64,000 bases of DNA from Candidatus Omnitrophota bacterium (lineage in GTDB: Bacteria; Omnitrophota; Gorgyraeia; Zapsychrales; Zapsychraceae): the NCBI GenBank assembly GCA_050250375.1, contig JBFWOS010000002.1, forward strand, positions 773,149-837,148. The letters run 5' to 3'. A program made the position numbers and the translations under genes. Positions 9,505 to 55,085 of the stretch are shown piece after piece (positions within the stretch are counted from its first letter, which is position 1; the number at the start of each line of letters is the position of its first letter). Under the pieces are notes generated by a model that was given only the letters and a program-made list of their open reading frames with translations, had not been told where the DNA came from and searched no databases.

Positions 9505-9537
9505 GAGTACCTTAAAGAATAGCCGGCCGCGGCAATC

Positions 9538-23276: not shown

Positions 23277-26200
23277 TTAATCAACAATCATGACGGCACC
23301 CATAAGAGGTCCGAAGACCCAGTGCGGCGGGGCTTCCTCGGAGTCGGTGTTACCGGAATTAATCGAAGAAAAAGATTTGATATTATTGCTGGAGGTCTGC
23401 GAGTCCTGGACATCCAGGAAATAAGTTGATTGTATCCCGGAGACAACGTCAAACGTAAACCGGGTCCCGGCCATCGATGACCTTAAATACAACGGAATGA
23501 CATCGCTGAACCCTTGAAGATTCAGAGTGTTGTTTATTGTGACGGTTGAACTCTTTCCAAACGACAATGTTCTGGAAGGTCCCGATGAAAGTTGTTTGGA
23601 GAAATCATAAAATGTTTCTGAAGAATTCACGTTTTGGTCTGCACCATCCATCACTACATTTCCCGAATGCGGATCAAAGATCCCCCCATTATTATTCCAG
23701 TCCCCGGATACAGTGATCGGCTCGTTTGCGCCCGTATCCAGTTCCCCCGCGTTTAGAAATAATGTGCCGTTAATATCTAAAGCATCCTGGATTGTGTAAA
23801 TTGCCAGTGCCGTGGAGGGTTGTTCACCGTTCGCCAGGCGCTGGATTTCAGGAACACTGAGCACACGATTGTAAATCCGGAAATCATCAATCAAGCCGTC
23901 CCAGCCGGCTGCCGCATCTTTGCCCCCCTGTCCGATCCGTAGTTCAGTCGCCCCGGTCATTGTCCCGGACAAAGCCGCATCAGAATAAGTCGGCGTATCA
24001 AGATTTCCGTCTATATACAGCCGGATCGGGTTCCCGCTGCTCCAGGTCAAAGCCAGATGCTGCCAGTTGGTCGTCTGGACAAAACTGGCGCTTTCGTATT
24101 GGCGATTGACGCCGCTGACCTGTAAACCGCATTTAATGACATTTGTTCCGCCGCCGCTTGCGCCGGATAAATCATAACGAAGTGTAAAAATATTGTCTCC
24201 CCCGTTGGGTGGTTCACCGTTGAAGAACCCGTCGTCCACTCCGGTCGCGTCTGCTTTTACCCACAATGATACGGTAAATTCTGACAAACCATTGATATAA
24301 TTTTCTGCGTCGCTATCAATAATGTAATCCGTGGTCCCGTCAAATTGAAGGCTGGCCGGGTTATCAAAGTGGATCATCGCAGATGTCCCTGTATTGGGCG
24401 TTGTATTATTGACATAAATCATATCCCTTTGGAATCCGCTGCTGCCGTAAGCGGTCGTCCCGGTTGTTTCATCCATTTTCCAGTACGCGATCAGGCCGTC
24501 GTTGATGATCAGATGATGGAATGAACTCGTCCCCGATGTAATTGTCTGCGGATTCGTGGAAATAAATAAGACCGTCGAATCGGCGTTGGTAAATGTACCG
24601 CCGGTCATATCCCAGGAACCATCGACGATGATGGTTGAATTGCCGGCCGTCCCGGCGGTCGCATCCAGTGTGGAATCCAAATCAACGAGTCCGTTGATGG
24701 TCAAGTCATATCCATCGGTCTGAAATACACCGGCTAAAACCTCGAAATCACTGCCGAGGATCTCATCAGCCCCCATCATAAATGTTCCCCCCAAACCGTT
24801 AATGCGCAAGAACTGATACGTCCAGTCCTGAATGACGTGTGTGCCGGATGTCGCGGTATACTCGGCTCCGGAACCCGGATTAAAGACAGGTCCCGAATCC
24901 AGGGTAATGGTCTGGCTCCCGGCCAGCTGCAGAAGACCGTCCACCGTGATCGTTGACCCGGCATTGGTGGTAAAATCATACACGCCCCAGTCAAAGGTCG
25001 CCCCCGCGTCGATCGTGATCGTCCCATCGACAACCAGTCCGCTGGCCAGGATCACTTCGGCGGATGTATTGGAAATCTGTAAATCCCCGATCGATCCTCC
25101 GCCGGAGGTCAGCGTTTGGGTGACCGTGCCATCGGCGATCAGGAGAATGTCGTCTTCAATACTGCCGGCCCCGGATTTGTTGATGTCTCCGGAAACCGTG
25201 ATGGTGTGAATCTCGGTCCCGTCGGCCAGAAGATCGCTCCCTGAAGCATTACTCATGGACAGGTCCTGCTGGACGAGCAGGTCATCACTGACATGGATGT
25301 CATTGGCCGAAGTGCCGGCAAACCCTAAATTATAAAAGGTTGTCGGTCCGGTTATTGTAACCGGGTTGGCGGTGCTGTTAAACGTAACCGTCCCGTTGCG
25401 CGCGATAAATGTGTCTGCGTTGATCCAATTCCCGAATATAAAAGATGAATAATTATTCGTCGCATGGGAATCGAGCGTGCCATCCAGTAACGAAAGCGTC
25501 CCTCCTACGGTAAAGGTCCCGCCCAGTTCAATTGTATAATCCGCCCCGCCGTCCGCGTCATCAATCACAACATTATAAAAGGTGGACGATCCTAACGCGA
25601 CGGTCACTGTACCGGCTGTCCCGTCAAACGTAACGGTCGAAGTGCCGGGATCAAATGTCCCCAAACTGCTGGCGATCCAGTCACCGCTTACTGTCATGAG
25701 AACCTGGTTAGTTCCCGCATCCAACTCACCATCCGAAATATTAATGTTTCCGTTTATATCCTGGTCATATTGAAGAATAACATTGTCACTGCCCGGAACA
25801 CCGGTATTAAAAACAGCAAAGTTTTCAAACGGCTGGTTCAGATTATCGACCATCTGGTCTGAAGTTCCGTTAAAGGTTACGGTACTGCCGGTTTCATTAA
25901 ATGTACCGCTGCTTGAATTCCAATCCCCGGAAACAGTCATCGTTCCGGTCAATGTTAAGGTTCCGCCCAGATTAAAATGGTGGGTGACAATTCCTTCCGG
26001 AGAAACGGTAATGACGGAATTATTAGGAAGAATATTAAGCTCTTCATCGGTATAAGAACCGTCGGCATCGGCGATTAAGACGGTCCCGGACGTCACAAGA
26101 TACATAACGTCTTCGTCATCCGTGTTGTCATAGTGACCGATTTCAGTCAGAGTGAACGTCTGGTTGTCATCACTGCCGATGGTCAGGACATGCCGGTCAA

Positions 26201-29200
26201 GCACGACACCGCTGATATTCCCGGAGCCGTCATATTTGGTGACGCCTGAAGATTCATCGGCGGCAATGATATCTCCGTCTCCGTCTTCGGCCCACATGGT
26301 CAGACGATCACCGATTAAAATCGGAGCGTTATTAATCGTCCAGGCTCCGCTGGAAACGACGCCGGTCATGCCGACACATAAATTACCGTTGACCGCCAGA
26401 GCCACGATGGTGTTGTCGACCAGGTCAGACGTGCCCGATATATCAACCGTGGCGGCAGTATAACTGATGACCAGACGGCCGTTATTCCCGGCTGTCCCGG
26501 CGCCTGATGTAGCGCCGCCGGTTCCCCCTTGCCCCGCATTGCCGGCGTAATCCGTGTCGGTGTTATTCCCGGCGGCAGTACCGCTGCCGTCGGAGGTCGA
26601 GGTGGCCGTTCCGGAGACAAAAGATGAACCCCCTCCACCACCGCCGCCGCCGGCATTGCCCGCCTGCGACCCGCTGCCTCCGCCTCCACCGTAATAGCCG
26701 GACCCTCCTCCTCCTCCCGCACCGTAACCGCTGGCGTTGGCATCACCGGTCCCGCCGTCTCCGCCGTTGGTGGTCCCGCCGTTTCCGGCGGAACCGTCAG
26801 CGCCTTGTCCGGAACGTCCGTCCGCTCCTGCGCCGCCTGTATCCGCCGCGCCGGCTGAACCGCTGTTATTGCCGCCTGTTCCTCCGCTGCCTCCGGAGGA
26901 TTGGTCTGCTCCGCCGCCCCCTCCGGCATTGCCTGACGCGCTGCCGTTGACACCTGTTGTTCCGCCACCCGGACCGCCGGCTCCACCCGGGGTGGCTGAC
27001 GAATTGTCACCACCACCACCACCTCCTCCTCCAGCGGAGATAAGTAAAGGTGTGGATGCGCGAAAGACCGCTGTCCGCCCCCCTCCACCCGCGCCGTCCC
27101 CCGAAGCGTTTCCTGAACCGCCGGAACTGAATGCTCCTGCCCCGCCGGAGCCGCCGACATGGATATCTAATGTTTCCATGGGAGTAACCGCCAGGGTTGC
27201 CGTCGCAAAGGCCGCTCCGCTTCCGTCTCCACCGGTACCTACCGTCCCTCCACCCCCGCCGCCTCCGCCTCCGCCCCAGGCTTTAACGGTGATCTCCGTG
27301 ACACCTTTGGGCACCACAAACGTATCCGATCCGGCGACCGTAAAAACTTGTGTTCCAAAACCATCCGGTAGTGGAAAAATCCAGAATGGAGAAGCCGTTA
27401 AATCGTCATTTCCTCCGTCATTCACGGAGTTTCTTGCCGTGATGTCATTGTTCAAGGCGTTGGAGTTGGCCACTTTGACAAATTCAACAATCTGGTCCCC
27501 GCCCGTTACACTCAAGCTGAACTGTGTTGACCCGTCGATGCTGTCAAGTTCGACTTCATTATTGATTTCACCGACCAGATTCAGGCTTCCCGTTACGGTA
27601 AAGGTGGTCGATTGTTGAAACTCCATTTTGGCTGAAAGGGTGGTACTGACCAGGTCCGCCGTTGTGAACGATTCGGTAAATTGCACCCCGAACGCGGATG
27701 AATTCGTTACTTCGATAATATTATATGTTTCTGAATTGCTGGCGACCGTTTGTAATCCTGTCCCGTCAAATTCAACCGTTGAGCTGGTTACCGTAAACGT
27801 ATCAAGGTTGGCCAGGTCAAGATCACCCCCCAGAAAAACAGTGTCGTTACTGATGTTGAACGTCGTGGCCCCGCCGTTATTGACCGTAAGACTTCCGTTG
27901 ATATCCAGATCGTCCGCTGTGCTGAGAACTCCGCCGGTAACGGACGATCCGATTTGGATATTGTTAAACGCTCCGCCTGAACTGGTCAGCGATGATGTTC
28001 CGTCAAACACAACGGTCGAATTCGTATTGATAAAATTCCCCCCGGTCATATCCCAATCCCCGGACACATTAAGGGTGGAATTCCCATCGGCGCCGCTCTG
28101 CGCGTCCAATGTTCCGTTCAAGGTCAACCCGCCGTTGATGTCAACTTCATATCCGCCTGTGATTAGATTGTCACCTGTATCAATCGTCAAGGTGTTGCTT
28201 AAGAAGTCCGAGGACAAGTTTACGGCGTTATTGGGGGAACGGCTGATCAGAACATTCCCCAAATTTGTCCCGCCGTCCACGTTTAAATCCAGAATCCCGT
28301 CCAGCAGTACCGTTCCGGCGCCGGCTGTGAATGTACCGCCGGTCTTGATGATATTGCCGGCGATATTAATATCGGTGTTATTGGCGCCCAGATTGATCGT
28401 TCCGTCGTTCATGTTTAACGGCCCGTCAATGTCGATCAGGATTGAGGAGTTGGGGGTAATCGTTCCGGTGTATCCGGATTCGATCAGGATACCTCCGACA
28501 TTAAACGCGGCGTTGACAGTCGCGTTATTTGTACAGCTGTTGGAAAAAACGACATTATGGGTTGTATTCGGGACAGAGGCCCCACCGCCGACACCGCAGG
28601 AATTTTCAGAAGCCGACCAGTTGGCCGCAGAATTTGTATTCCCTCCGGCCGAACCGACCCAATACCGGTTGACGGCAAAGATCCAATGCGGTGAGGCTTC
28701 GGCGTTATCGTTCCCGCCGTTATTGTTCGAAGACAAGGCCGTAATATCGTTTGAAGAAGCTTGTGAATCCATGATATTTAAAAAACTGACCGTTTGGCTG
28801 GATCCGGTCACATCAAACGTGAACCTTACTCCAGAAGAATTGCTTTGAAGGACCAGACGGTCATCGTCATCCAGCCCCGTCAGATTTAAAGTATTGGTGA
28901 TGGTCTGGGTTGAGGAGGCGGCAATGGTCAGAGTGGTGTTTGAACTGTTGTCGGTGGATTCAATCTTGGTCAGATTGCGGAAGGTAGTTGATCCCGTAAT
29001 ACTCTGGTTATCGCCATCGAGGATGACCGTTGATACGCCGGATCCCGCAGCCAGGGAACCCGAAGCGCCCATCAGCCAGTTTCCCGCGAGATTTATGTTG
29101 ACGTTATTGGTTCCCGAATCAAGATTACCGTCTGTAATCGTCAGCGTTCCGTTGATGTCCAGGGCATCAGACAAAATAATGTCATCATTTCCGGATGACC

Positions 29201-30791
29201 CGGTATTATTCAACAGAATATTATAAAACGATTCTGTATCGCTGGTGATCGTCTGATCGCTTGTCCCGTTAAATGTGATCGTCCCGGTGCCGGCGTTTAG
29301 GGAACCTCCTGTAGAATCCCAGTTCCCTGTTAAATCCATTGTCCCGGTAATCGTGAGTGTTCCATCCAGATCGGCATGATGCGTGCGCACACCTTCCGGT
29401 GAACTCACCGTCACCGTATTACCGGATAAAATTCTTATTTGTTCATCCGAATAACTGTTTCCCGCATCGACAATCAGTACTGTCCCGCTGAAAAGAACAC
29501 TGTGCAGGACATCTTCATCATTGCTGTTACCATAAAGTCCGATTTCCGTGACGCTCAGATTCTGGTTGTCCGTGCTGCCGATGGACAAGACATGGCGGTT
29601 TAAAACCATACCGGTGATATTTCCGGAGCCGTCATACTGTGTAACGGCCGTTGCTTCATCGGCCGTGGCTATATCCCCGTCGCCGTCTTCCGCCCAAACG
29701 GTAATAACCTCATTGGATGTGATCGGAACATCTGCGATCGTCCAGGCCCCGGCTGAGACCGTTCCGGTTAACGCCGTAAAGCGGACCCCGTTAACCGCGA
29801 TCTTAACCAAAGTTCCATCCGCTAAATCCGATGTCCCGGAAATATCCGCCGATGTATAGGAGATAACTAAACGCCCCGGATTTCCGGAGGTTCCGGAAGA
29901 CGATGACGCTCCGCCGGTTCCGCCCTGCCCGGCACTGCCGGCATAATCCGCGTCGCCGTTATTACCTGCCGATGTTCCTGAACCGGCTGTTGTTGATGTT
30001 GAAGACCCGGTTAATAAGGAAGAACCGCCGCCACCGCCGCCACCGCCGGCATTACTCGCCAACGAACCGCTTCCGCCGCCACCGCCAAACCTTCCTGCTC
30101 CACCTCCGCCTCCTCCGCCATAACCATTCGCGTTTGCGTCACCGTTACCACCGGAGGCGCCTCCAATCGTACCGCCGTTTCCCTTCGAACCATCCGCTCC
30201 CTGTCCGCTTCGACCGTCGGCCCCGGCGCCACCGCTCAAGGCTGCCCCGGCCGTGCCTGTATTATTTCCACCTGTGCCTGCGGCCCCGCCGGCCACCGTT
30301 GTTCCGCCGCCACCGCCACCCGAACTGCCAGACGCGCTGCCGGCTGTCCCTGATGAACCGCCTCCCGGTCCGCCATTTCCGCCAGGTGTTACTGAAGAGT
30401 TATCACCGCCTCCACCGCCTCCGCCTCCGGGCGCAATGAGTAACTGAGTCCCGCCGCGCGCTACACCCGAACGGCCCCCCCCACCGCCACCGTCTCCGGA
30501 ATTTGCACCTGAGCCGCCGGTACTAAAATCCCCTTGACCACCGCCGCCTCCCACTGTGATCGTGAGCGACTCCGCCGGTGTGACGACAAGCGTTGCTCCT
30601 GAAAAACCTGCCCCGCCGCCGCTCCCTCCTGTACTGGATGCGTTAGTCCCGCCGCCACCGCCGCCACCGCCTCCTCCCCAAGCTTTAACGCTGACCGAAG
30701 TTACACCTTGGGGTACACTCCAGGAAGAGGACCCTGCTGAATTAAATACAACCTGGGCCGCCCCGGCCGGAGCCGTCCACAGGCCCATCAA
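23277..30791 (-). CDS. Giant (2,504 aa) glycine-rich, beta-helical-repeat surface/adhesin-like protein with a LamG (concanavalin A-like lectin) domain
   Basis: One continuous ORF with a TTG/ATG start at 30791/30788. It has two Gly-rich domains. The first is QVVFNSAGSSSWSVPQGVTSVSVKAWGGGGGGGGGG..., and its counterpart is TQVFTVAGSDTFVVPKGVTEITVKAWGGGGGGGGGG.... Long runs of parallel-beta-helix-type repeats (…GDWxxxGGTF…STVxFxGTSDQ…) follow. A LamG domain (aa ~2101-2323, nt ~23823-24491) ends in GLIDDFRIYNRVLSVPEIQRLANGE. Three module ends share SP[HF]W[IV]F. No classical signal peptide is evident at the N-terminus. Confidence 0.85.
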   Translation of the reverse strand: MMGLWTAPAGAAQVVFNSAGSSSWSVPQGVTSVSVKAWGGGGGGGGGGTNASSTGGSGGGAGFSGATLVVTPAESLTITVGGGGGQGDFSTGGSGANSGDGGGGGGRSGVARGGTQLLIAPGGGGGGGGDNSSVTPGGNGGPGGGSSGTAGSASGSSGGGGGGTTVAGGAAGTGGNNTGTAGAALSGGAGADGRSGQGADGSKGNGGTIGGASGGNGDANANGYGGGGGGGAGRFGGGGGSGSLASNAGGGGGGGGSSLLTGSSTSTTAGSGTSAGNNGDADYAGSAGQGGTGGASSSSGTSGNPGRLVISYTSADISGTSDLADGTLVKIAVNGVRFTALTGTVSAGAWTIADVPITSNEVITVWAEDGDGDIATADEATAVTQYDGSGNITGMVLNRHVLSIGSTDNQNLSVTEIGLYGNSNDEDVLHSVLFSGTVLIVDAGNSYSDEQIRILSGNTVTVSSPEGVRTHHADLDGTLTITGTMDLTGNWDSTGGSLNAGTGTITFNGTSDQTITSDTESFYNILLNNTGSSGNDDIILSDALDINGTLTITDGNLDSGTNNVNINLAGNWLMGASGSLAAGSGVSTVILDGDNQSITGSTTFRNLTKIESTDNSSNTTLTIAASSTQTITNTLNLTGLDDDDRLVLQSNSSGVRFTFDVTGSSQTVSFLNIMDSQASSNDITALSSNNNGGNDNAEASPHWIFAVNRYWVGSAGGNTNSAANWSASENSCGVGGGASVPNTTHNVVFSNSCTNNATVNAAFNVGGILIESGYTGTITPNSSILIDIDGPLNMNDGTINLGANNTDINIAGNIIKTGGTFTAGAGTVLLDGILDLNVDGGTNLGNVLISRSPNNAVNLSSDFLSNTLTIDTGDNLITGGYEVDINGGLTLNGTLDAQSGADGNSTLNVSGDWDMTGGNFINTNSTVVFDGTSSLTSSGGAFNNIQIGSSVTGGVLSTADDLDINGSLTVNNGGATTFNISNDTVFLGGDLDLANLDTFTVTSSTVEFDGTGLQTVASNSETYNIIEVTNSSAFGVQFTESFTTADLVSTTLSAKMEFQQSTTFTVTGSLNLVGEINNEVELDSIDGSTQFSLSVTGGDQIVEFVKVANSNALNNDITARNSVNDGGNDDLTASPFWIFPLPDGFGTQVFTVAGSDTFVVPKGVTEITVKAWGGGGGGGGGGTVGTGGDGSGAAFATATLAVTPMETLDIHVGGSGGAGAFSSGGSGNASGDGAGGGGRTAVFRASTPLLISAGGGGGGGGDNSSATPGGAGGPGGGTTGVNGSASGNAGGGGGADQSSGGSGGTGGNNSGSAGAADTGGAGADGRSGQGADGSAGNGGTTNGGDGGTGDANASGYGAGGGGGSGYYGGGGGSGSQAGNAGGGGGGGGSSFVSGTATSTSDGSGTAAGNNTDTDYAGNAGQGGTGGATSGAGTAGNNGRLVISYTAATVDISGTSDLVDNTIVALAVNGNLCVGMTGVVSSGAWTINNAPILIGDRLTMWAEDGDGDIIAADESSGVTKYDGSGNISGVVLDRHVLTIGSDDNQTFTLTEIGHYDNTDDEDVMYLVTSGTVLIADADGSYTDEELNILPNNSVITVSPEGIVTHHFNLGGTLTLTGTMTVSGDWNSSSGTFNETGSTVTFNGTSDQMVDNLNQPFENFAVFNTGVPGSDNVILQYDQDINGNINISDGELDAGTNQVLMTVSGDWIASSLGTFDPGTSTVTFDGTAGTVTVALGSSTFYNVVIDDADGGADYTIELGGTFTVGGTLSLLDGTLDSHATNNYSSFIFGNWINADTFIARNGTVTFNSTANPVTITGPTTFYNLGFAGTSANDIHVSDDLLVQQDLSMSNASGSDLLADGTEIHTITVSGDINKSGAGSIEDDILLIADGTVTQTLTSGGGSIGDLQISNTSAEVILASGLVVDGTITIDAGATFDWGVYDFTTNAGSTITVDGLLQLAGSQTITLDSGPVFNPGSGAEYTATSGTHVIQDWTYQFLRINGLGGTFMMGADEILGSDFEVLAGVFQTDGYDLTINGLVDLDSTLDATAGTAGNSTIIVDGSWDMTGGTFTNADSTVLFISTNPQTITSGTSSFHHLIINDGLIAYWKMDETTGTTAYGSSGFQRDMIYVNNTTPNTGTSAMIHFDNPASLQFDGTTDYIIDSDAENYINGLSEFTVSLWVKADATGVDDGFFNGEPPNGGDNIFTLRYDLSGASGGGTNVIKCGLQVSGVNRQYESASFVQTTNWQHLALTWSSGNPIRLYIDGNLDTPTYSDAALSGTMTGATELRIGQGGKDAAAGWDGLIDDFRIYNRVLSVPEIQRLANGEQPSTALAIYTIQDALDINGTLFLNAGELDTGANEPITVSGDWNNNGGIFDPHSGNVVMDGADQNVNSSETFYDFSKQLSSGPSRTLSFGKSSTVTINNTLNLQGFSDVIPLYLRSSMAGTRFTFDVVSGIQSTYFLDVQDSQTSSNNIKSFSSINSGNTDSEEAPPHWVFGPLMGAVMIVD
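23280..27374 (-). repeat. Copy 2 (aa 1140-2504) of the intragenic tandem duplication; it carries the LamG insertion
   Basis: Homologous to copy 1 over its length, and ~226 aa longer. The extra length is accounted for by the LamG domain at nt ~23823-24491. Boundaries are approximate. Confidence 0.55.
27375..30791 (-). repeat. Copy 1 (aa 1-1139) of the ~3.4 kb intragenic tandem duplication in the giant gene
   Basis: V35 of VKAWGGGG maps to nt 30687-30689 and its homolog V1169 to nt 27285-27287, an offset of 1,134 aa (3,402 nt). The protein segments align (e.g. AEDGDGDIATADEATAVTQYDGSGNITGMVLNRHVL vs AEDGDGDIIAADESSGVTKYDGSGNISGVVLDRHVL). Nucleotide identity is ~70%. Boundaries are approximate. 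Confidence 0.6.
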
Positions 30792-39583: not shown

Positions 39584-39973
39584 TTAGTCATGTTTGTGTT
39601 TTTTATGGTTTCGGTCTTTTTTCCCGTGTTTATCTTTCCGGGCATTGTATTTTTCGAGTTGTTCGGGAGTCAAGACTGTTTTCAGTTTGTCCTGGTATTC
39701 TTTGCGGATCAGTTCCATCTTTTTTTCAGCTTCTTCATGGACGGCCTTTTTCTTATCCATTTTTTCCCGCATTAGCGCTTCCAATTGAAGCGCCTGCTGT
39801 TCCGTTAAAGCAAGGCTTTTTGTCATTTGTTTGACTTTTTTCGAGGTCTTGTCCGCCTTCTTTTCAGGCTGAACAGTTTTCCCTTCACTGCCGCCGCACA
39901 TGGGACAACCGGAAAACGCCGGACCGGCCGCTAACATAAGGATGATGGCGGTTAAAATGAATTTTTTATGCAT
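39584..39973 (-). CDS. Periplasmic Spy/CpxP-like protein (LTxxQ motif family)
   Basis: The start MHKKFILTAIILMLAAGPAFSG (ATG at 39973) is a signal peptide. It has two LTxxQ motifs (LTEQQALQLEAL, LTPEQLEKY) and a His/Lys-rich C-terminus. The ORF-track start at 40018 falls inside the terminator hairpin. Confidence 0.55.
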   Translation of the reverse strand: MHKKFILTAIILMLAAGPAFSGCPMCGGSEGKTVQPEKKADKTSKKVKQMTKSLALTEQQALQLEALMREKMDKKKAVHEEAEKKMELIRKEYQDKLKTVLTPEQLEKYNARKDKHGKKDRNHKKHKHD

Positions 39974-40004
39974 AAAAACGATCCTTTCATTAGAAAATAA
40001 AAAA

Positions 40005-40030
40005 GGGTATCTTTTCAATTAAAGATACCC
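40005..40030 (-). terminator. Intrinsic terminator (9-bp stem GGGTATCTT/AAGATACCC, 8-nt loop, then U run) downstream of the UppP-ApbE gene
   Basis: Read directly. On the minus strand the hairpin is followed by TTTTTTATTTTC (RC of 39992-40004). It sits between the UppP-ApbE stop (40132) and the Spy-like start (39973). Confidence 0.55.
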
Positions 40031-40131: not shown

Positions 40132-41880
40132 TTATAAAGACGGTTTGACGCTGAACCGGTCGTAATTCTGGCTTTTAACCTGCCTGGTTCCGCCATCGCT
40201 TTCCCGGACAATGACCAGGCTGGCATACCCTTCCCCTAACGCGTCGGTCAGGCTGGCGCCCTGGTCCGGTTCAAGAATACATAAAGCCGTTGACCAAAAG
40301 TCGGAAAATTCGGTATTGGGGCTGATCACCGTGGCGCTCAAAATCTGGTCTGACGGATACCCGGTGATCGGATTGATAATATGCGACCATTGTTTTCCCT
40401 GAATCGTATAAAACCGCTCATAGTTTCCGGATGTTGACACGGAAATATCGGCTGCTTCAACAACATCGATTAAACGGGTTGTGTCCTGCGGATCGCGGAC
40501 TCCGACATGCCAGGGCTGCCCCTTGCAGTTTATTCCTCCCGCATAAAGTTCACCCGAGGCGTCAACCAGGAAATTCCGGATGCCATATTCCCGCAAAATC
40601 CGGGCCGCTTCATCAGCCGCGAATCCGTCCCCGATACTATCGATATTCAGTTTTAGCCCTTCCTTAAGCAAATGAATCCGGTTCCCGGAAAGCAGCTGGA
40701 TCTGCTGTATCCCCAACTGTTCTTTGACGGCTTTTAGTTCCTCCGGAGTTGGAATCGTATTTTTCTTTTCGTTCTCTTTCCAAAGTTTGATCAACGGGTA
40801 AATCGTAATATCAAAAACGCCTTTGGATATCTCATGATATTCCATTGAATTTTTAATCAGCTGATAAGTATCTTCGCCCACCTTCACATTTTCGGTATAA
40901 CCATTCTTGTTAATTCTGTTGAGGTCGCTGTTCGGATCGTAGACACTCAGCCGCCAGTGAATATCCGCAAACCTGTCCCAGATCTCATCCAAGGCCTGTT
41001 CAACCGTTTCTTTCCGGTCTTCGTTCTCACAGACGTCAATCTTGACGTAAGCCCCGAAAAAATCTCCGACCCGGGTGAATTTGTTATAATCCGGTCCGTT
41101 CTCTTTGAGACAGCCGTTGGTTGAGAGGATAAGGGCAAACAGGAGAATACGGTAAATCCCGAAAGGGATAAAATTGAAGCGTTTGATAAACTGCAGCAGA
41201 AATTTAATACTGAATAAAGCAACGACAAACGAGACTAAAAATCCCAGGGCAAAATACCCAAACTGGTCCGGGTTTATATCCCCCGAACTTTTGAGCAAGT
41301 CATAGCAGGTCGCGGCCAAAATGGTCGGGACGGCTAGCAAAAATGAAAATTCAACCACGGTTTTACGCTTGATCCCCATGGTCAATCCACCGATGATGCT
41401 GGCGGCCGACCGGGAAACGCCCGGGATAATGGCAATGGTCTGGAAAAGACCGATAATAACCGCTGTCTTGTAAGGAATTTGTTCAATGTCTTCAATACGG
41501 GATTTTTTGTCTTTATGGAACAGATCAAAGATAATGATAACGAGACCCCCCCAGAAAAGGGACCAGGCGATCAGCATATGGCTTTCAAATAAATAATTTT
41601 TAACCAGTTTATACAGCAGAAAGCCGATGACTGCGGTCGGCACAAACGCCGCCATGATCCGGGTCCACACCTCTTTTTTCCGCAGTAGTGTCCGTCCGTA
41701 CAAAACAACCACCGCCAGAATCGCGCCGAGCTGGATGAAAATTTCAAAACTCTTCAAGAATCCGGTCTGGGTGTACCCAAGGTACTTTGCGGTGAGGATC
41801 AGATGTCCGGTGGACGAAACCGGTAAGAACTCGGTAATGCCTTCAACAATTCCTAAAATTATAATATCAATAATATTCAT
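40132..41880 (-). CDS. Fusion protein: N-terminal undecaprenyl-diphosphate phosphatase (UppP/BacA) with C-terminal ApbE/Ftp-family FAD:protein FMN transferase
   Basis: aa 1-265 match UppP (MNIIDIIILGIVEGITEFLPVSSTGHLIL, ...GVSRSAASIIGGL...). aa ~270-582 match ApbE (...SGNYERFYTIQGKQWSHIINPITGYP plus other ApbE family motifs). It is a single uninterrupted 582-aa ORF. Confidence 0.75.
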   Translation of the reverse strand: MNIIDIIILGIVEGITEFLPVSSTGHLILTAKYLGYTQTGFLKSFEIFIQLGAILAVVVLYGRTLLRKKEVWTRIMAAFVPTAVIGFLLYKLVKNYLFESHMLIAWSLFWGGLVIIIFDLFHKDKKSRIEDIEQIPYKTAVIIGLFQTIAIIPGVSRSAASIIGGLTMGIKRKTVVEFSFLLAVPTILAATCYDLLKSSGDINPDQFGYFALGFLVSFVVALFSIKFLLQFIKRFNFIPFGIYRILLFALILSTNGCLKENGPDYNKFTRVGDFFGAYVKIDVCENEDRKETVEQALDEIWDRFADIHWRLSVYDPNSDLNRINKNGYTENVKVGEDTYQLIKNSMEYHEISKGVFDITIYPLIKLWKENEKKNTIPTPEELKAVKEQLGIQQIQLLSGNRIHLLKEGLKLNIDSIGDGFAADEAARILREYGIRNFLVDASGELYAGGINCKGQPWHVGVRDPQDTTRLIDVVEAADISVSTSGNYERFYTIQGKQWSHIINPITGYPSDQILSATVISPNTEFSDFWSTALCILEPDQGASLTDALGEGYASLVIVRESDGGTRQVKSQNYDRFSVKPSL

Positions 41881-41952
41881 GGTTCATGATTTTAATAACA
41901 ATCGGGGCGGTTGTACACATATTTGTTGGGAAAAATGCGGCGATCGTGTGTT

Positions 41953-41992
41953 CATCCGGGTGAAAAGATTATTCGACCTCTCCACCCGGATG
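41953..41992. promoter_or_regulatory. 10-bp inverted repeat CATCCGGGTG-N20-CACCCGGATG between the glnK stop and the UppP-ApbE start
   Basis: Read directly. It begins 8 bp beyond the glnK stop and sits 60 bp upstream of the UppP-ApbE start. No U tract follows on either strand, so it is not a canonical intrinsic terminator. It may be a regulator site or an RNA stem. Confidence 0.3.
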
Positions 41993-41999
41993 TCTACAT

Positions 42000-43731: not shown

Positions 43732-44709
43732 TTACTGGTTATGCCGGATCAGATAGATGGTGTATCCAAGATACATTGAAAAAAACATCATCCCTTCCCA
43801 TCGGGAAATGCTGTATTTTGTCCGGAAAACCGGATAACAGAGTACGGCGATCAAGACCATAAACGGGATGTCCACCGCCATGGATGCCGGGTTGATTTGT
43901 AAGCCTCCCCGGGGGATAAGCGCCGTCACCCCCAGGATCGCCAGAATATTATAAATATTGCTTCCAACAACATTACCGATCGCGATATCCCGTTCTCCTT
44001 TAAGCGTGGCGACCACTGAAGTCGCGACTTCCGGCAATGATGTTCCGGCGGCCACAATCGTGAGTGCGATCACCAATTCACTGACACCGAAATACCGTGC
44101 GATACCGATCGATGAATTTACCAGCCATTTTGACCCCACAATTAACAGGAGCAATCCGGCACCGATAAAAAGCAGGTCCTGCAGAACATGGTTCGCCTTG
44201 TTTTTTTCTGAAAGACCTGCAAGAGAAATTCTTTCCGATTCATTTTTGATTTCTTGGTATTCTCTTTTGCTGTACCAAAAACAAAACCATGTATATAGGA
44301 TGACTCCCAGAAGAAAAATCACGCCTTCAAATCGGGATATTTTATAATCCAGGGCCGCCAGATAAAACAGACCTGAAACGGTCACCATGATCGGCGTATC
44401 CAGTTTGATCAATTTTTGATCCACTTTGAGCGGAGCGATGAGTGCGCATAAACCTAAAATAAAAAGCACGTTGAAAATATTACTGCCGACCACGTTACCG
44501 ATTGCGATATCGAATTTTTCAAGTAACGCCGAATTTATATTTACAACCAGTTCAGGCGCGCTTGTTCCGTACGCGACGATTGTTAACCCGATGGCCAGCT
44601 GGGATACCCCGATGGCGGCCGCCAGCCGTGAAGCCCCGCGGACCAGCCAATCAGCGCCGATGGTCAACACGGTCAAACCCAAACCCAAAAAGAGTAATTG
44701 GTTTAACAT
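43732..44709 (-). CDS. Ca2+/cation antiporter (CaCA family, YrbG-like), paralog 1
   Basis: Alpha-repeat motifs GTSAPELVVNINSAL and GTSLPEVATSVVA. The start is taken at MLNQLLFLGL (ATG at 44709), by analogy with its paralog's N-terminus. Confidence 0.75.
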   Translation of the reverse strand: MLNQLLFLGLGLTVLTIGADWLVRGASRLAAAIGVSQLAIGLTIVAYGTSAPELVVNINSALLEKFDIAIGNVVGSNIFNVLFILGLCALIAPLKVDQKLIKLDTPIMVTVSGLFYLAALDYKISRFEGVIFLLGVILYTWFCFWYSKREYQEIKNESERISLAGLSEKNKANHVLQDLLFIGAGLLLLIVGSKWLVNSSIGIARYFGVSELVIALTIVAAGTSLPEVATSVVATLKGERDIAIGNVVGSNIYNILAILGVTALIPRGGLQINPASMAVDIPFMVLIAVLCYPVFRTKYSISRWEGMMFFSMYLGYTIYLIRHNQ

Positions 44710-44714
44710 AGATA

Positions 44715-45695
44715 TTAATGAACCGATTGCCGTATTATGTAACAGGTATAGCCCAGATACAAAGAAAAAAACAAAAGCCCTTCCCATCGGGAAATAGCGG
44801 CTTTCCACCGGAAGACCGGATAACACAAAATGATAACAAAGAGCATAAACGGGATGTCCAGTTTCATGGAAGCCGGATTGATGAGAAGACCCTTGGACGG
44901 GATAAGGGCGGAAATCCCCAGGATGACCAGGATGTTTGAGATATTGCTGCCGATAATATTTCCGATCGCGATCTCCCTCTCTCCTTTGATCGTAGCGACA
45001 ACCGAAGTCGCCACCTCAGGCAAAGAAGTCCCGGCGGCCACGATGGTCAGGGCAATGACCAGTTCACTGACACCAAAATACCGGGCGATTTCAACCGAAG
45101 AACTGACAAGCCACTGGGCGCCGATCACCAGCAAAGCCAAACCGGCCAGAATAAAAAATATGTCGCGCAGAATGTTATCGGGTTTTCGTAATTCCCTGAT
45201 ATCTCCCCCGAATTCTTTATCAAATTCATTGACAATCTCCGGGGCCTCCGTCTGGCAGGTCCTGAAACAAATCCAGTTATAAAAAAGCATACCACAGAAA
45301 AATACAGCCCCTTCAATACGGCTGATTTTTAAATCCAGCGAGAACAGATAAAAAAGCACAGAAATGAAGATCATGAAAGGAACATCAAAACGGACGAGCT
45401 TTTGTTCGACTTTGATAGGAGCGATTATGGCGCACAGGCCCAAAATAAAAGCGATGTTGAAAATATTACTCCCGATAACATTCCCGGTTGCAATATCAAA
45501 TTTTCCAAGCAGGACGGAATTGATACTGACCATCAATTCCGGAGCACTGGTTCCGAAAGCAACGACAGTCAATCCGATGACAAGGGGCGATATGCCGAAG
45601 GCCCGGCCGAGTTTCGAGGCGCCGCGCACCAGCCAATCAGCGCCCCAAGCCAGACCAAATAATCCTAAAAACAAAAATACAAAATGATTAAGCAT
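44715..45695 (-). CDS. Ca2+/cation antiporter (CaCA family, YrbG-like), paralog 2
   Basis: Same architecture and motifs as paralog 1. The two gene ends are highly similar at the nucleotide level (compare 43732-43880 with 44740-44890), indicating a tandem duplication. Confidence 0.75.
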   Translation of the reverse strand: MLNHFVFLFLGLFGLAWGADWLVRGASKLGRAFGISPLVIGLTVVAFGTSAPELMVSINSVLLGKFDIATGNVIGSNIFNIAFILGLCAIIAPIKVEQKLVRFDVPFMIFISVLFYLFSLDLKISRIEGAVFFCGMLFYNWICFRTCQTEAPEIVNEFDKEFGGDIRELRKPDNILRDIFFILAGLALLVIGAQWLVSSSVEIARYFGVSELVIALTIVAAGTSLPEVATSVVATIKGEREIAIGNIIGSNISNILVILGISALIPSKGLLINPASMKLDIPFMLFVIILCYPVFRWKAAISRWEGLLFFSLYLGYTCYIIRQSVH

Positions 45696-45845: not shown

Positions 45846-46820
45846 TCATCCATTCCGAAGATGTTTTTGCGGAACGGCATGCAGCAAGACGGCAATCAAA
45901 AAGCCCGCGCCGGCCAAAAGCAAGACCAGGAAAAACTGTCCATCCATGGCTGCCGGCCAGACATTAGCTTCCTGAACCGGTATTATTTTCCCAGAACTGG
46001 TCGTTAATGTTTGAATGACTTTTTTCCATGGCCAGATTTTATTAAGGGAACCAATGACGAACCCCGTCAGTATGGCTATGGTTAAATCGTGATATTTTCG
46101 AAACAACCACTCCAGGACACGGACAAAGGATAAAATTCCGACAACAATCCCGCTTAGAAAGATGATGATCGTTCCGATCTCCCGCTGATGAACGGCCTCA
46201 AGGATAAACTGATATTTCCCTAAAAGAAGCAGGATAAATGCCCCTGATATCCCCGGCAGGATCATCGCGCAAATCGCCAGGGCGCCGCTGAAAAAAATAA
46301 ACCACCATGTTTCCGGGGTGCTGACCGGGACTAATTGCACAAAGAAATATGTCCCGACACTGGAAACCATTAGGGCTATAACTTTTCCTTTGTCCCATTG
46401 TTTCATGGCCTTGGCAATGATCGGCACCGTAGCCAGGATCAGTCCGAAAAAAAAAGCATTCGTTAAAACAGGCTGGTTGGCCAACAGCCATGTAACCACG
46501 CGGGAGAATAATAATATCGCGCAGCCGATCCCGAAAAAAACAGCGCCGAGAAAACGCCAGGCCACGGACGCCAGGGCCTGCCGGAACTGGCCTCGCAAAA
46601 CCAGACGGACGAATACAGCGTCAAACGAACGGATCGCCTTGATCAAATCTTCATATATTTCGAGCATAAACGCGATGGTCCCTCCGGAAATACCCGGGAT
46701 CACGTCCGCAATCCCCATGCAAAAACCTTTGAGGGACAAAGTCAGGAAGTCCGCGAATGAACGGTTGTCATCTACGGGATGATAAAAGGTATTGTGTGCC
46801 GATGGTTCTATTTTATTCAC
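45846..46820 (-). CDS. DUF368-family membrane protein (PopT-like polyprenyl-phosphate transporter family)
   Basis: LKGFCMGIADVIPGISGGTIAFML and a second ILPGISGAFILLLLG motif match the two DUF368 repeats. 8 TM helices. Confidence 0.65.
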   Translation of the reverse strand: MNKIEPSAHNTFYHPVDDNRSFADFLTLSLKGFCMGIADVIPGISGGTIAFMLEIYEDLIKAIRSFDAVFVRLVLRGQFRQALASVAWRFLGAVFFGIGCAILLFSRVVTWLLANQPVLTNAFFFGLILATVPIIAKAMKQWDKGKVIALMVSSVGTYFFVQLVPVSTPETWWFIFFSGALAICAMILPGISGAFILLLLGKYQFILEAVHQREIGTIIIFLSGIVVGILSFVRVLEWLFRKYHDLTIAILTGFVIGSLNKIWPWKKVIQTLTTSSGKIIPVQEANVWPAAMDGQFFLVLLLAGAGFLIAVLLHAVPQKHLRNG

Positions 46821-50887: not shown

Positions 50888-51910
50888 TTAAATGTCGTAT
50901 TCGCTGTATGTAATATTTTTAGGGGTCAGGAATACTTCATCATTTTTGACGAGCTTCAGGGTTTTAAATTCTTCCTGAGAAATTTCGATCTGGTAAACTT
51001 CCCCTTCCTCAGAACGGGCATCAATCTTGACGACTGACCCCGCGGGATTGACAAAGACAATCCTCACCCGAACGGAATCGGCGGATGTTGACAATCGGGA
51101 TACAGCAAGCTGGTGCGGACGAACATATATTTTTTTTTGTTTGGAGTTGCCGGGCAACGCGTCGCCTTCAGAACGGGCATGAAAGATATTTACATTCCCC
51201 AAAAAATTCAGGACAAACACGGAGGCCGGGTTATGATACACCTCTTCCGGGCTGCCTGTTTGTTCAATCCGGCCTTCATTCATAACGACGATTTTATCGG
51301 CCACTTCAAGGGCCTCTTCCTGGTCATGGGTGACAAACAGGGTCGTAATATGCAGGTCGTCATGGAACCGTCTGAGCCATTGCCGCAACTCCTTCCTCAC
51401 CCTGGCATCCAGCGAACCAAACGGTTCATCCAGCAATAACACCTTCGGTTCGATGGCTAAGGCCCTGGCTAAGGCAATCCGCTGACGTTGTCCTCCGGAT
51501 AACTGGGAAGGATAACGGTCGGCGACCCAGTCCAACTGCACTAACTTCAGAAGTTCTTGCACCTTGTTTTTTATCGCTTCCTTCCCCGGCCGGATGCCTT
51601 TCGGTTTAACTTCCAGGCCAAAAGCGATATTTTGAAATACGGTCATATGCCGGAACAACGCATAATGCTGAAAGACAAAACCGACGTTCCGGTCTTTTGT
51701 CTTTTTATTCTTCGCATCATCGCCGTGAAATAAAATTTCGCCGCTTTCCGCCGTTTCTAGTCCGGCAATAATCCTCAAAAGTGTGGTCTTTCCCGATCCG
51801 GACGGACCCAGTAACGCGATCAGTTCCCCGGTGTTAACGGTTAGACTTACATTGTTCAACGCTTTGTACGTCCCGAATGTTTTGTTGATTTGCTGGACTT
51901 CAATGCTCAT
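50888..51910 (-). CDS. cysA: Sulfate/thiosulfate ABC transporter ATP-binding protein with a C-terminal TOBE domain
   Basis: Walker [13 protein letters not shown] signature LSGGQRQR and Walker B LLLDEP. The start overlaps the cysW stop. Confidence 0.9.
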
Positions 51911-52755
51911 GCAAAAATCTCCGTCTTTTGGGCCGCTTTTAGTTCTGCCTTATATTTATGTTCAATCATCGATTTTAAGATCAATGTGACCAGCGCCAGC
52001 ATGGCCAGTATGGACGCGGCGGCAAAAGCCGCGGTAAACTGGTATTCATTGTACAAAATCTCGATATGCAGCGGCAGGGTGTTGGTCTGTCCCCGGATAT
52101 GTCCTGAGACAACTGAAACCGCGCCGAACTCACCCATCGCCCTGGCATTGCACAAGATGACCCCGTATAAAAGGCCCCATTTGATGTTCGGTAATGTTAT
52201 CCGCCAGAACGTCTGCCATCCGCTGGCTCCCAGGGTCAACGCGGCCTCTTCCTCTTCCGTCCCCTGGACCTTCATGACCGGGATCAGTTCACGGGCAATC
52301 ATGGGGAACGTAACAAAAATCGTCGCCAGAATAATGGCCGGCGGCGCAAAAATAATTTTAATCCCGCGTTCCATGAACCAGGGGCCCCAGGCTCCCTGAG
52401 CGCCAAACAATAAGACAAAAATCAATCCGGAAATGACCGGCGAAACGGATAACGGAAGGTCAATCAGTGTGATCAAAAGATTCTTTCCGTAAAAGTCAAA
52501 TTTTGCGATCGCCCATGATGCAGCCACACCAAATACCAAATTTAACGGCACAGCCAATAACGCCGTCACGACCGTCAGTCTCAGCGCGGATAAAGTATTC
52601 GGATCGTTAATGGCACTAAAATAAACTCCTAGTCCTTTATTTAAACCGGTAATCAAAACAGCACCCAGCGGCAACACAATAAACAACGTCAGATATGTCA
52701 GGGCGACAGTGATTAATATCCAGCGGATAACAGGCGGTTCAGTTCGTATCGGCAT
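51907..52755 (-). CDS. cysW: Sulfate ABC transporter permease
   Basis: Six TM helices and an EAA-like loop (...[18 protein letters not shown]). It is adjacent to cysT and cysA. Confidence 0.85.
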
Positions 52756-53591
52756 TAATTGACTCCAATTCGTTTAGAAGAAATCCATTGTAAATAATTG
52801 GTGAACGCCAATAACGCGAACGAAACCAACAACATGACTAACGCAATGGCGGTGGCGCCGGAGTAATCGTACTGTTCCAGTTTAGTCATGATGAGAAGCG
52901 GCGCAATCTCCGTTTTCCTAGGCATATTCCCGGCGATAAAAATAACCGATCCGTATTCTCCGATCCCCCGGGCAAAGGCTAATGTAAATCCCGTGATCAA
53001 GGGCGGAATAAGATTGGGAAACAAGATGCGGGTAAACGTCTGCCAGCGGGTGGCCCCCAGGCTAGCCGCTGCGTCTTCGATTTCACCGTCCAATTCCTGC
53101 AAAACAGGCTCAATCGTGCGGACCACAAAAGGCAGTCCGATAAAAATCAGGGCGATCGTGATACCGAACGGGCTGTACGCGGATTGAATGCCCCACGCGT
53201 ACAAATGTTGTCCAATCAATCCGTTTTGCGCATACAAAGAGGCCAGCGTAATCCCGGTTACCGCCGTGGGCAAGGCAAAAGGAAAATCAACCAGGGCGTC
53301 AAATATCTTTTTCCCGGGAAAGTGGTAACGGACCAGAACCCAGGCAATCAGGAAACCAAAGACCATATTGACCAATCCGGCAACAAAACTGGCCCCGAAA
53401 CTCAAGCGGTAAGCAGCCAATGTTCGGGGCGCGGTTACAACATCCCAAATGCCGCTCAGGCCAATCGTCGATGACTTGATGAATAACATGGACAACGGGA
53501 GCAATACGATCAACCCTAAATAAAACAAAGTATACCCAAACGCCAGGTTAAATCCGGGCAGTGTCGTTTTCTTTCGTAAAATTTTAATCAT
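52755..53591 (-). CDS. cysT: Sulfate ABC transporter permease
   Basis: Paralogous to the permease downstream (AASLGATRWQTFTRILFP). Its stop overlaps the cysW start. Confidence 0.85.
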   Translation of the reverse strand: MIKILRKKTTLPGFNLAFGYTLFYLGLIVLLPLSMLFIKSSTIGLSGIWDVVTAPRTLAAYRLSFGASFVAGLVNMVFGFLIAWVLVRYHFPGKKIFDALVDFPFALPTAVTGITLASLYAQNGLIGQHLYAWGIQSAYSPFGITIALIFIGLPFVVRTIEPVLQELDGEIEDAAASLGATRWQTFTRILFPNLIPPLITGFTLAFARGIGEYGSVIFIAGNMPRKTEIAPLLIMTKLEQYDYSGATAIALVMLLVSFALLAFTNYLQWISSKRIGVN

Positions 53592-53620
53592 ACGGGTTTC
53601 TCTCCGATGGCAGGCAGATG

Positions 53621-54622
53621 TTATTCCTGGTAAATCTGATCAAATATTCCCTTATCGGCAAAATGGATCGCCTGAGCCTTGGCCCAACCTCCCGCGATTT
53701 CTTCAATCGTGAAAAAAACAATCGGTGAGAAACGGTCCGCATATTTTTCGGTTACCGACAGAGACCTGGGGCGGTAATAATGCCGGGCCGCAATTTCTTG
53801 CGCGGTGTCCGAATAAAGATAAGCCAAATATTCTCCTGCAATCTCACGGGTTTTGTGGCGTTCGACATTCCGGTCGACTAAAGTGACCGGCGGTTCCGCC
53901 AAAATGCTCGTGGACGGTGTGACGATTTCAAATTTATCCGGCCCCAATTCCGTCACGGCCAGATAAGCCTCATTTTCCCAGGAAATCAAGACATCCCCTA
54001 TTCCCCGTTCGATAAATGTCGTCATTGATCCGCGGGCGCCCGAATCCAGGATCGGAACATTTTTATAGATGGCTTTTACAAAGGCCTTTGCTTCGTTGTC
54101 ATCATGATCCCATCGCAGCCAGGCATAACCCCAGGCTGCCATATAATTCCAGCGGGCGCCTCCTGATGTCTTTGGATTGGGTGTAATAACGGTCAAACCG
54201 GGTCGGACCAGATCTTCCCAATCTTTAATCTTTTTCGGGTTTCCTTTGCGCACCAGGAAAACAATCGTTGAGGTATACGGTGCGCTGTTATAAGGTAACC
54301 GGGTCTGCCAGCTTTCCGGGATAAATCCGGATTTCTCGGCGATGGAATCGATATCATAAGACAACGCGAGTGTGACGACATCCGCTTCCAGGCCGTCAAT
54401 GACAGACCGTGCCTGTTTGCCGCTTCCGCCGTGGGATTGATTAATTACCACGGTCTGGCCTGTCTTATCTTTCCAATACGTTCGAAACGTCTGGTTAAAC
54501 TCCTCATAAAATTCCCGGGTCGGATCGTACGAAACATTTAAGAGGCGCAGCGTCCCACCCATTTTTGAACAACTGATCCCCGCCGCAAGGATTAAGACCA
54601 TAATAAATTTGTAATTTTTCAT
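53621..54622 (-). CDS. sbp: Sulfate/thiosulfate-binding periplasmic protein
   Basis: It has a signal peptide plus an Sbp/CysP-family pattern (...[11 protein letters not shown]...[15 protein letters not shown]...). It is the first gene of the permease operon. Confidence 0.8.
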
Positions 54623-54629
54623 AAAAGTC

Positions 54630-55085
54630 TCAAATGATAAAATTCATTGTGTTTTTTTGCTGGGCCTGAACGACTTCGGACATTAAATCGGCAAAACTTT
54701 TATTATCCAGGATATCAGCCAGGGCATCCCGGACTTCTTTCATCACAAACCGGATTCCGCAGCTTTTCTCATCCACACATTCAGCGCAGCGCTGATACGC
54801 CGTCTGGCTGACACACCCCACCGGGGCTAACGGACCTTCCAGGACACGGATAATTTCTCCCAACGTAATTTCCCGGGGAGATTTACTTAAACGATACCCC
54901 CCGCCTTTTCCGATTTTACTGGTTAAAACGCCTGTTTTACGTAATTCCAGCAAAATAGCTTCAAGAAATTTTTTGGGAATTCCCTTACTTTTGGATATGT
55001 CCGCAATAAGGGCCGGCCCATTTAAATAATGTTCACTTAAATAAATCATGGCCTGAAGGCCGTATTTTGTCTTTTTTGAAATCAT
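54630..55085 (-). CDS. Rrf2-family transcriptional regulator (IscR/CymR-like) with a Cys cluster
   Basis: The wHTH reads [13 protein letters not shown]...[37 protein letters not shown]. Four Cys lie in [22 protein letters not shown]. It is located immediately upstream of the sulfate ABC operon. Confidence 0.8.

Follow-up and report, generated by a model that had tools for sequence, protein, structure and literature searches.

The undecaprenyl-diphosphate phosphatase UppP (BacA) and the flavin adenine dinucleotide (FAD):protein flavin mononucleotide (FMN) transferase ApbE (Ftp) are both described as stand-alone proteins. In Escherichia coli BacA, the N- and C-terminus are both assigned to the membrane's periplasmic side, and Arg261 locks the two BacA domains together, while ApbE in Vibrio cholerae has the catalytic triad Ser241-His257-Asp285 (PMC5852022 and PMC12052999, respectively). 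Here we analyze a stretch of 64,000 nucleotides (nt) from a Candidatus Omnitrophota genome (GenBank assembly GCA_050250375.1, contig JBFWOS010000002.1, positions 773,149 to 837,148; hereafter the window), in which one open reading frame (ORF) encodes both enzymes as a single chain, UppP at the N-terminus and ApbE at the C-terminus. Both halves are ordinary representatives of their families; the domain combination is new, the parts are known. We know of no functional link between flavinylation and UppP.

The explanation we favor, with a probability of about 0.75, is an in-frame fusion of two independent housekeeping envelope enzymes, in which UppP serves as the export signal and anchor of ApbE. 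The UppP part would dephosphorylate undecaprenyl diphosphate (C55-PP) at the periplasmic face, and its helix H10, ending on the periplasmic side, would take the place of the signal peptide of stand-alone ApbE lipoproteins. UppP would in this way export the ApbE domain and keep it on the inner membrane's outer face, where ApbE would transfer FMN from FAD to targets encoded elsewhere, likely RnfG and RnfD. The two catalytic activities would proceed without mechanistic coupling, and the fusion would alter only the targeting and anchoring of ApbE, besides tying the expression of both enzymes together. We infer the topology from homology to E. coli BacA, and infer functional independence and substrate identity as well.

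One reading frame joins complete UppP and ApbE domains

The single UppP–ApbE ORF of the original prediction was recovered in full (Table 1). Its N-terminal part matches the Pfam family BacA (PF02673) over residues 7–247 (E = 5e-73; 246 bits against a curated cut-off of 33.4), spanning positions 2–254 of the 257-position profile, and it exceeds the cut-offs of both the NCBIfam UppP equivalog model NF001390 (261.8 vs 260 bits) and TIGR00753 (242 vs 217.5 bits). Residues 6–251 align with the E. coli BacA structures 5OON and 6CB2 (E = 3e-51). The Pfam match and the 5OON alignment bear out the earlier claim of a complete UppP domain. The UppP part ends at residue 256 instead of the 265 first proposed.

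Both catalytic motifs are present. Motif 1, EGITEFLPVSSTGH, has the same pattern as VEGLTEFLPVSSTGH of E. coli in the 5OON alignment and agrees with the reference ...EGxTEFLPVSSTGH, in which E. coli E17, E21, S27, and H30 are the defining residues. Motif 2 agrees with the reference PGxSRS, defined by E. coli S173 and R174 together with the H10 arginine R261. Across 26 UppP sequences, E17, F18, P20, S22, S23, and H26 of motif 1, P153, G154, S156, and R157 of motif 2, and Arg244 of H10 are invariant. The final hydrophobic segment of the UppP half, residues 235–258, corresponds to H10. As judged from its sequence, the UppP half is a normal polytopic UppP, predicted to dephosphorylate C55-PP at the periplasmic face.

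The C-terminal half proved to be the complete ApbE that had been proposed. Pfam ApbE (PF02424) covers residues 275–548 (E = 5e-74; 249.7 bits against a curated cut-off of 25.6) at profile positions 1–258 of 266, and matches in the PDB include 3PND, 2O18, 7ESA, and 6NXI (E = 1e-38 to 1e-42). The catalytic triad is intact: in the alignment with Listeria FmnB (7ESA), Ser484, His500, and Asp527 fall on its chain positions 237, 253, and 281, which are Ser257, His273, and Asp301 in native numbering. A score of 163 against the cut-off of 498 for the E. coli-type ApbE equivalog NF007774 (NCBIfam) marks the domain as a member of the family and not as an E. coli equivalog, and its nearest relatives are stand-alone Omnitrophota proteins of 330–355 amino acids (aa) with 50–58% identity.

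Beyond residue 258 the chain has no further hydrophobic segment. By homology with BacA, both of whose termini are assigned to the periplasm (PMC5852022), the ApbE domain is predicted to be extracytoplasmic, which agrees with the earlier view that the fusion is topologically coherent.

As had been noted from the sequence, no Rnf or Nqr substrate lies in the window: Pfam scans of all 57 of its ORFs returned no FMN_bind, Rnf, or Nqr family, and the flavinylation motif D-x-x-[ST]-G-A-[ST] is absent from every ORF of at least 80 aa. Two relaxed matches to the motif, in a trehalose-6-phosphate synthase and in a 2504-aa protein, deviate from the consensus. The flavinylation targets are most probably RnfG and RnfD, encoded elsewhere in the genome, given that conservation of Rnf across Omnitrophota has been reported (PMC10066038, PMC8542988).

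Table 1. Features of the fused gene and its surroundings, in coordinates of the window
Feature	Position	Strand	Basis
Fused uppP-apbE gene	40132..41880	-	One ORF, 582 codons plus stop
UppP/BacA domain, residues 1–256	41113..41880	-	5OON alignment, NCBIfam equivalog, dN/dS
UppP catalytic motif 1, EGITEFLPVSSTGH, residues 13–26	41803..41844	-	5OON alignment
UppP catalytic motif 2, PGVSRS, residues 153–158	41407..41424	-	Aligned with E. coli PGFSRS
Arg244, counterpart of E. coli BacA Arg261, middle of helix H10	41149..41151	-	Alignment
Lipobox-like S253-T-N-G-C257 at the junction	41110..41124	-	Orthologue comparison
Variable linker/tether, residues 258–270	41071..41109	-	dN/dS
ApbE (FAD:protein FMN transferase) domain, residues 271–582	40135..41070	-	Pfam, PDB matches
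ApbE catalytic triad, Ser484 (40429–40431), His500 (40381–40383), Asp527 (40300–40302)	40300..40431	-	7ESA alignment
DUF368/PopT-family gene, not counted in the same system	45846..46820	-	PF04018
Two matches resembling promoters, in the 119-bp gap before the fusion	41889..41996	-	Consensus scan; regional total not above chance
Terminator-like hairpin (10-bp stem and T-run) between the fusion stop and the next gene	40005..40030	-	Scan

Conservation and rarity of the fusion

The identical protein occurs in two NCBI records from a Candidatus Omnitrophota metagenome-assembled genome (MGE0267015.1 and MGE3981698.1), where it is annotated as UppP only, and in a Logan assembly. A second fusion, 90% identical as a protein, lies on a 16-kb contig (L001) from run SRR23004073 that shares synteny with the window over 18 called genes. 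The two fusion genes are both 1749 nt long and share 82.3% nucleotide identity without indels, and their codon differences comprise 212 synonymous and 61 non-synonymous ones. The ratio of non-synonymous to synonymous substitution rates (dN/dS, Nei-Gojobori) is 0.021 for UppP and 0.066 for ApbE at a dS of ∼1.1, and reaches 0.69 over the 14 codons of the junction and linker (residues 257–270). Since the window and L001 share the fusion at this level of divergence, it arose before their two clearly separate lineages parted, and strong purifying selection acts on both of its halves.

The architecture is very rare. A survey of its spread, as the original prediction had proposed, found PF02673 and PF02424 combined only in the clusters of these two proteins among 5.8 billion clusters at 90% identity. 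An exhaustive HMMER pass over 1.84 billion representatives at 50% identity returned single-domain matches only, of at most 320 bits, in a set where the fusion itself is no representative and where clusters represented by single-domain proteins may conceal other fusions. Metagenome contigs, likewise scanned, gave no further copies, only distant single-domain matches. The nearest relatives of the UppP half are 50–60% identical and either stand alone or are joined to other domains, and an eLife survey of flavinylation makes no mention of undecaprenyl, BacA, fusions, or Omnitrophota. The fusion is recent and lineage-specific, at roughly the genus level.

UppP and ApbE each occur in other fusions

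Among 152 retrieved UppP-type proteins, 30 extend more than 60 residues beyond the conserved arginine. The domains that follow UppP H10 include polysaccharide deacetylase, VanY, YkuD, M23, peptidoglycan-binding, C39, rhodanese, Big_12-like immunoglobulin-type, glutaredoxin with DsbD, and DedA/SNARE_assoc domains. Because so many UppP-type proteins bear other C-terminal domains, UppP is a recurrent N-terminal anchor. In P0057, P0068, P0092, P0093, and P0119, A-x-A-like signal-peptidase-I motifs lie 15–20 residues past the H10 arginine (e.g. ...AFPASA/QDVPP and ...SHPAYA/DIIT), and such fusions may have kept the signal-peptide cleavage region of the partner after H10.

ApbE, too, is recurrently anchored by polytopic proteins, because a UbiA–ApbE fusion also exists: the 605-aa protein P0240 carries a UbiA prenyltransferase (residues 10–261) followed by ApbE (residues 310–586), joined by a transmembrane (TM) helix and lacking a cysteine at the join. 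The Listeria extracellular electron transfer locus holds dmkA and fmnB, and P0240 may mirror a quinone/flavin link of this DmkA–FmnB type.

Two further arrangements were seen among the UppP-type proteins. In P0113, UppP is joined to DedA/SNARE_assoc, the other undecaprenyl-phosphate flippase family, a pairing that makes direct functional sense for the recycling of undecaprenyl phosphate (C55-P); in P0086, a UbiA-family domain stands in front of UppP.

The junction keeps a lipobox-position cysteine

The junction reads ...FIPFGIYR244-ILLFALILSTNG-C257-LKENGPDYNKFTRVGDFFG..., with Cys257 encoded at nt 41110–41112. The natural end of E. coli BacA lies 12 residues past Arg261, and Cys257 is the 13th residue past Arg244. 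Most stand-alone ApbE orthologues start with a classical lipoprotein signal peptide (...LAGC, ...LTGC, or ...VFGC), and about 10 carry a plain N-terminal TM anchor without a cysteine; the mode of ApbE anchoring thus appears interchangeable in this clade. From the lipobox cysteine to the conserved K-x-F-[ST]-K-x-G-x-F-F-G there are 7–10 residues in the orthologues and nine from Cys257 in the fusion. Orthologue comparison identifies Cys257 as the positional homologue of the ancestral ApbE lipobox cysteine and indicates that the n- and h-regions that belonged to the ApbE signal peptide gave way to UppP H10 while the cysteine was kept. With H10 directly before a kept lipobox cysteine, replacement of a signal peptide or anchor is an ordinary explanation of the fusion. 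Separate translation of ApbE from an internal start was ruled out, as the window gene contains no in-frame ATG, GTG, or TTG from residue 200 to 261.

The mature state of the chain is a separate matter. One possible outcome, somewhat less likely than an intact chain, is a processed polyprotein, with H10 and S-T-N-G-C acting as an internal lipoprotein signal: Lgt would lipidate Cys257 and signal peptidase II (Lsp) would cut between Gly256 and Cys257, yielding a UppP of normal length (256 aa) and a lipid-anchored ApbE (326 aa), so that the fusion would be neutral for the mature proteins. The position of Cys257, homologous to the orthologues' lipobox cysteine and directly past the end point of E. 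coli BacA, speaks for such processing. The pentapeptide is also conserved: S-T-N-G-C is kept in L001 despite two synonymous changes, and nine of the 10 residues that follow differ (linker LKENGPDYN in the window vs VTGKALVDS in L001). Canonical lipoboxes in the gene downstream and in the orthologues indicate that the phylum makes lipoproteins, and the A-x-A-like motifs after H10 in the five UppP fusions named above also speak for processing. A precedent reportedly exists in Bradyrhizobium FbcH (cytochrome b/c1), a membrane polyprotein cut at an internal signal peptide. A literature search for precedents of internal signal peptides or polyproteins gave nothing useful, and we know of no internal lipobox that is processed behind a polytopic enzyme.

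The motif itself argues the other way. The lipobox consensus is [LVI][ASTVI][GAS]C, or a pattern of the PROSITE PS51257 type, after the h-region of a signal peptide, and S-T-N-G-C departs from it: it agrees at −1 (Gly) and +1 (Cys) but not at −3 (Thr) or −2 (Asn), and Asn at −2 occurs in none of ∼40 lipobox-bearing ApbE orthologues. Because the lipobox is noncanonical and internal, at residue 257 and not at the N-terminus, cleavage at Cys257 cannot be assumed. H10, moreover, is an integral, packed helix of UppP with Arg244 in mid-membrane (PMC5852022) and has no n-region, and most other UppP fusions, like the UbiA–ApbE protein, have no cleavage motif. Our slight preference, at roughly even odds, is for a chain that stays intact with UppP as its anchor, because UppP fusions are many, TM-anchored ApbE orthologues exist, and the lipobox is degenerate.

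Lipid-carrier recycling and flavinylation

A different account would make the fusion functional in its own right, physically linking lipid-carrier recycling with flavinylation or FAD hydrolysis, perhaps with a nearby DUF368 gene as part of a C55-P module. The DUF368/PopT-family gene reported ∼4 kb from the fusion does belong to PF04018, 'Undecaprenyl phosphate translocase-like' (E = 8e-89; 297.8 bits against a cut-off of 26). The NCBIfam polyprenyl-phosphate transporter models score it at 306.5 and 120.4 bits, both below their 400-bit cut-offs, which by profile comparison makes it a family member without equivalog status.

Several observations are compatible with such coupling: the fusion is kept under strong purifying selection, both activities belong to the periplasmic face, the DUF368 gene is encoded on the same strand at a distance of 4 kb, an arrangement kept in L001, and other polyprenyl-related UppP fusions exist, namely UppP–DedA (P0113) and UbiA–UppP (P0086). 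We nevertheless consider it improbable, because the fusion is rare, no linking neighborhood occurs elsewhere, and the junction evolves as a mere tether. The architecture is confined to the two 90%-identity clusters, with none among the 1.84 billion representatives or the metagenome contigs, and the junction changes freely (dN/dS of 0.69). Among the papers searched, only a study of copper stress in Desulfovibrio mentions ApbE together with undecaprenyl.

The neighborhood of the fusion also gives no sign of a conserved module. Four unrelated transporter genes (P-II, Amt, and two Na/Ca-exchanger genes of the Na_Ca_ex family) separate DUF368 from the fusion. Among 80 UppP loci of other species, taken from species-representative genomes (tblastn, 1.31 Mb), none has a DUF368 or ApbE homologue within 10 kb of UppP, and DUF368 and UppP otherwise occur together only in the close relative L001. 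The supposed local concentration of C55-P recycling functions is therefore not supported, and the proximity of DUF368 to the fusion, confined to this lineage, is most simply a coincidence. Nor are the stand-alone orthologues of the two halves ever neighbors. ApbE orthologues (L002–L006) lie in FTR1/cupredoxin/Feo, ECF-sigma/RND, or otherwise unknown gene contexts, none beside uppP, and the gene after stand-alone UppP relatives (L007, L008) encodes an aminotransferase or a ZIP-like transporter and is not apbE. A pre-fusion state with neighboring uppP and apbE was accordingly not found in L002–L006, L007, L008, or the 80 genome loci. With a rare fusion and no conserved neighborhood, a functional link between lipid-carrier recycling and flavinylation is not supported.

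An artefact or decaying gene, be it a frame merge of two adjacent genes, for which the original prediction had proposed a check, or a nonfunctional half, might be suspected from the great rarity of the fusion and its annotation as UppP only, but has a negligible probability, since the identical protein recurs in two NCBI records and a Logan assembly, the independently assembled, syntenic L001 (SRR23004073) has the same 1749-nt frame without indels at 82% identity, dN/dS is 0.02 and 0.07 in the two halves, and all catalytic residues are intact.

Against a fusion of independent enzymes with UppP as anchor, some points must be weighed. The strictly kept S-T-N-G-C beside a freely evolving linker hints at lipobox function, which favors cleavage over tethering. 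A flavinylation substrate was not found within the 64 kb of the window. Only two fusion sequences are available, so that the evolutionary inference is thin, and purifying selection on the fusion is compatible with the independence of the two activities but is not proof of it.

Other features of the locus

Upstream, the fusion is bordered by the P-II/Amt pair; downstream come a CpxP/Spy-like gene and TrkH. With promoter-like matches in front of it and a T-run hairpin behind it (Table 1), the fusion gene may form its own transcription unit, a weak suggestion given that the regional total of promoter-like matches is not above chance. The next gene downstream (39584–40018, reverse strand) encodes the CpxP/Spy-like protein, which is of LTXXQ type and itself carries a lipobox (AFSGC). 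The cluster with one stand-alone ApbE orthologue likewise includes a Metal_resist/LTXXQ gene (L004, 1729–2232), which may be coincidence.

An ABC transporter set (ABC_tran-TOBE_3, two permeases, and SBP_bac_11) with an Rrf2 regulator occupies 50888–55085 on the reverse strand. The same set, with Porin_O_P before Rrf2, is found in L002 (10362–16023), one gene from a stand-alone ApbE orthologue, and this loose synteny suggests that ApbE is ancestral to the neighborhood. The tandem Na/Ca-exchanger paralogues (43732–45695, reverse strand) are listed as ORFs that overlap by ∼110 nt; because of this overlap, the true start of the downstream gene is probably a later codon.

Elsewhere in the window, a giant ORF of 2504 aa (23277–30791, reverse strand) has Laminin_G_3 as its sole Pfam match and sits where the G+C content rises to 51–57%, compared with ∼46% for the window. 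A cluster for trehalose synthesis and turnover (GT20 OtsA-like, trehalose phosphatase, and GH15) and a membrane H+/Na+ pyrophosphatase (6899–11766 and 57581–59971, both on the reverse strand) fit the published metabolism of Omnitrophota (PMC8542988).

Implications and comparison with known systems

The pairing of UppP with ApbE is best seen as a rare join of unrelated envelope housekeeping enzymes, and not as evidence for a link between recycling and flavinylation. It adds another case of an exported domain attached to the periplasmic C-terminus of UppP, a site used recurrently in this way, and it illustrates that ApbE anchoring is evolutionarily flexible, using a lipid anchor, a single TM helix, UbiA, or UppP. 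A conserved lipobox-position cysteine behind a polytopic enzyme also offers a simple case in which Lgt and Lsp may act on an internal lipobox. If Cys257 were processed, the fusion would to our knowledge be the first membrane-enzyme polyprotein to undergo processing of the lipoprotein type, and the A-x-A motifs of other UppP fusions could then suggest a wider route by which periplasmic proteins are delivered through fusion to UppP.

With stand-alone ApbE/Ftp lipoproteins (Salmonella enterica 3PND, E. coli 2O18, V. cholerae 6NXI, Listeria monocytogenes FmnB 7ESA, and Omnitrophota P0003–P0055), the fusion shares its ApbE fold family, its Ser/His/Asp triad, two motifs (GxGxAAD and STSG), and a cysteine placed as in the lipobox. 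Unlike them, its ApbE half has no N-terminal signal peptide of its own, H10 stands in place of the n- and h-regions, and the lipobox is a degenerate T-N-G-C. ApbE is also one domain of a larger protein in trypanosomatid fumarate reductase (PMC12052999), but that protein is intracellular and joins ApbE to its own flavinylation target, whereas UppP lacks a flavinylation motif and is not known as a flavoprotein. E. coli BacA (5OON/6CB2) resembles the UppP half in its full-length alignment, both motifs, the Arg261/Arg244 pair, and the end point of H10; it differs in that the fusion chain runs 326 residues further, into the periplasmic ApbE domain.

The other UppP fusions have the same plan, with UppP at the N-terminus and H10 leading straight into an extracytoplasmic or membrane domain, but most of their partners work on the cell wall or lipid carrier, and a cysteine right after H10 is found only in the ApbE fusion. 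The UbiA–ApbE protein P0240 likewise places ApbE behind a polytopic membrane enzyme of polyprenyl metabolism; it differs in the partner family, in its plain TM anchor, and in having no junction cysteine. Bradyrhizobium FbcH is said to combine a polytopic membrane part, an internal signal sequence, and a periplasmic domain in one chain, as the fusion does, but there signal peptidase I reportedly makes the cut and the products are parts of one complex, whereas cleavage of the UppP–ApbE chain would be of the lipoprotein type.

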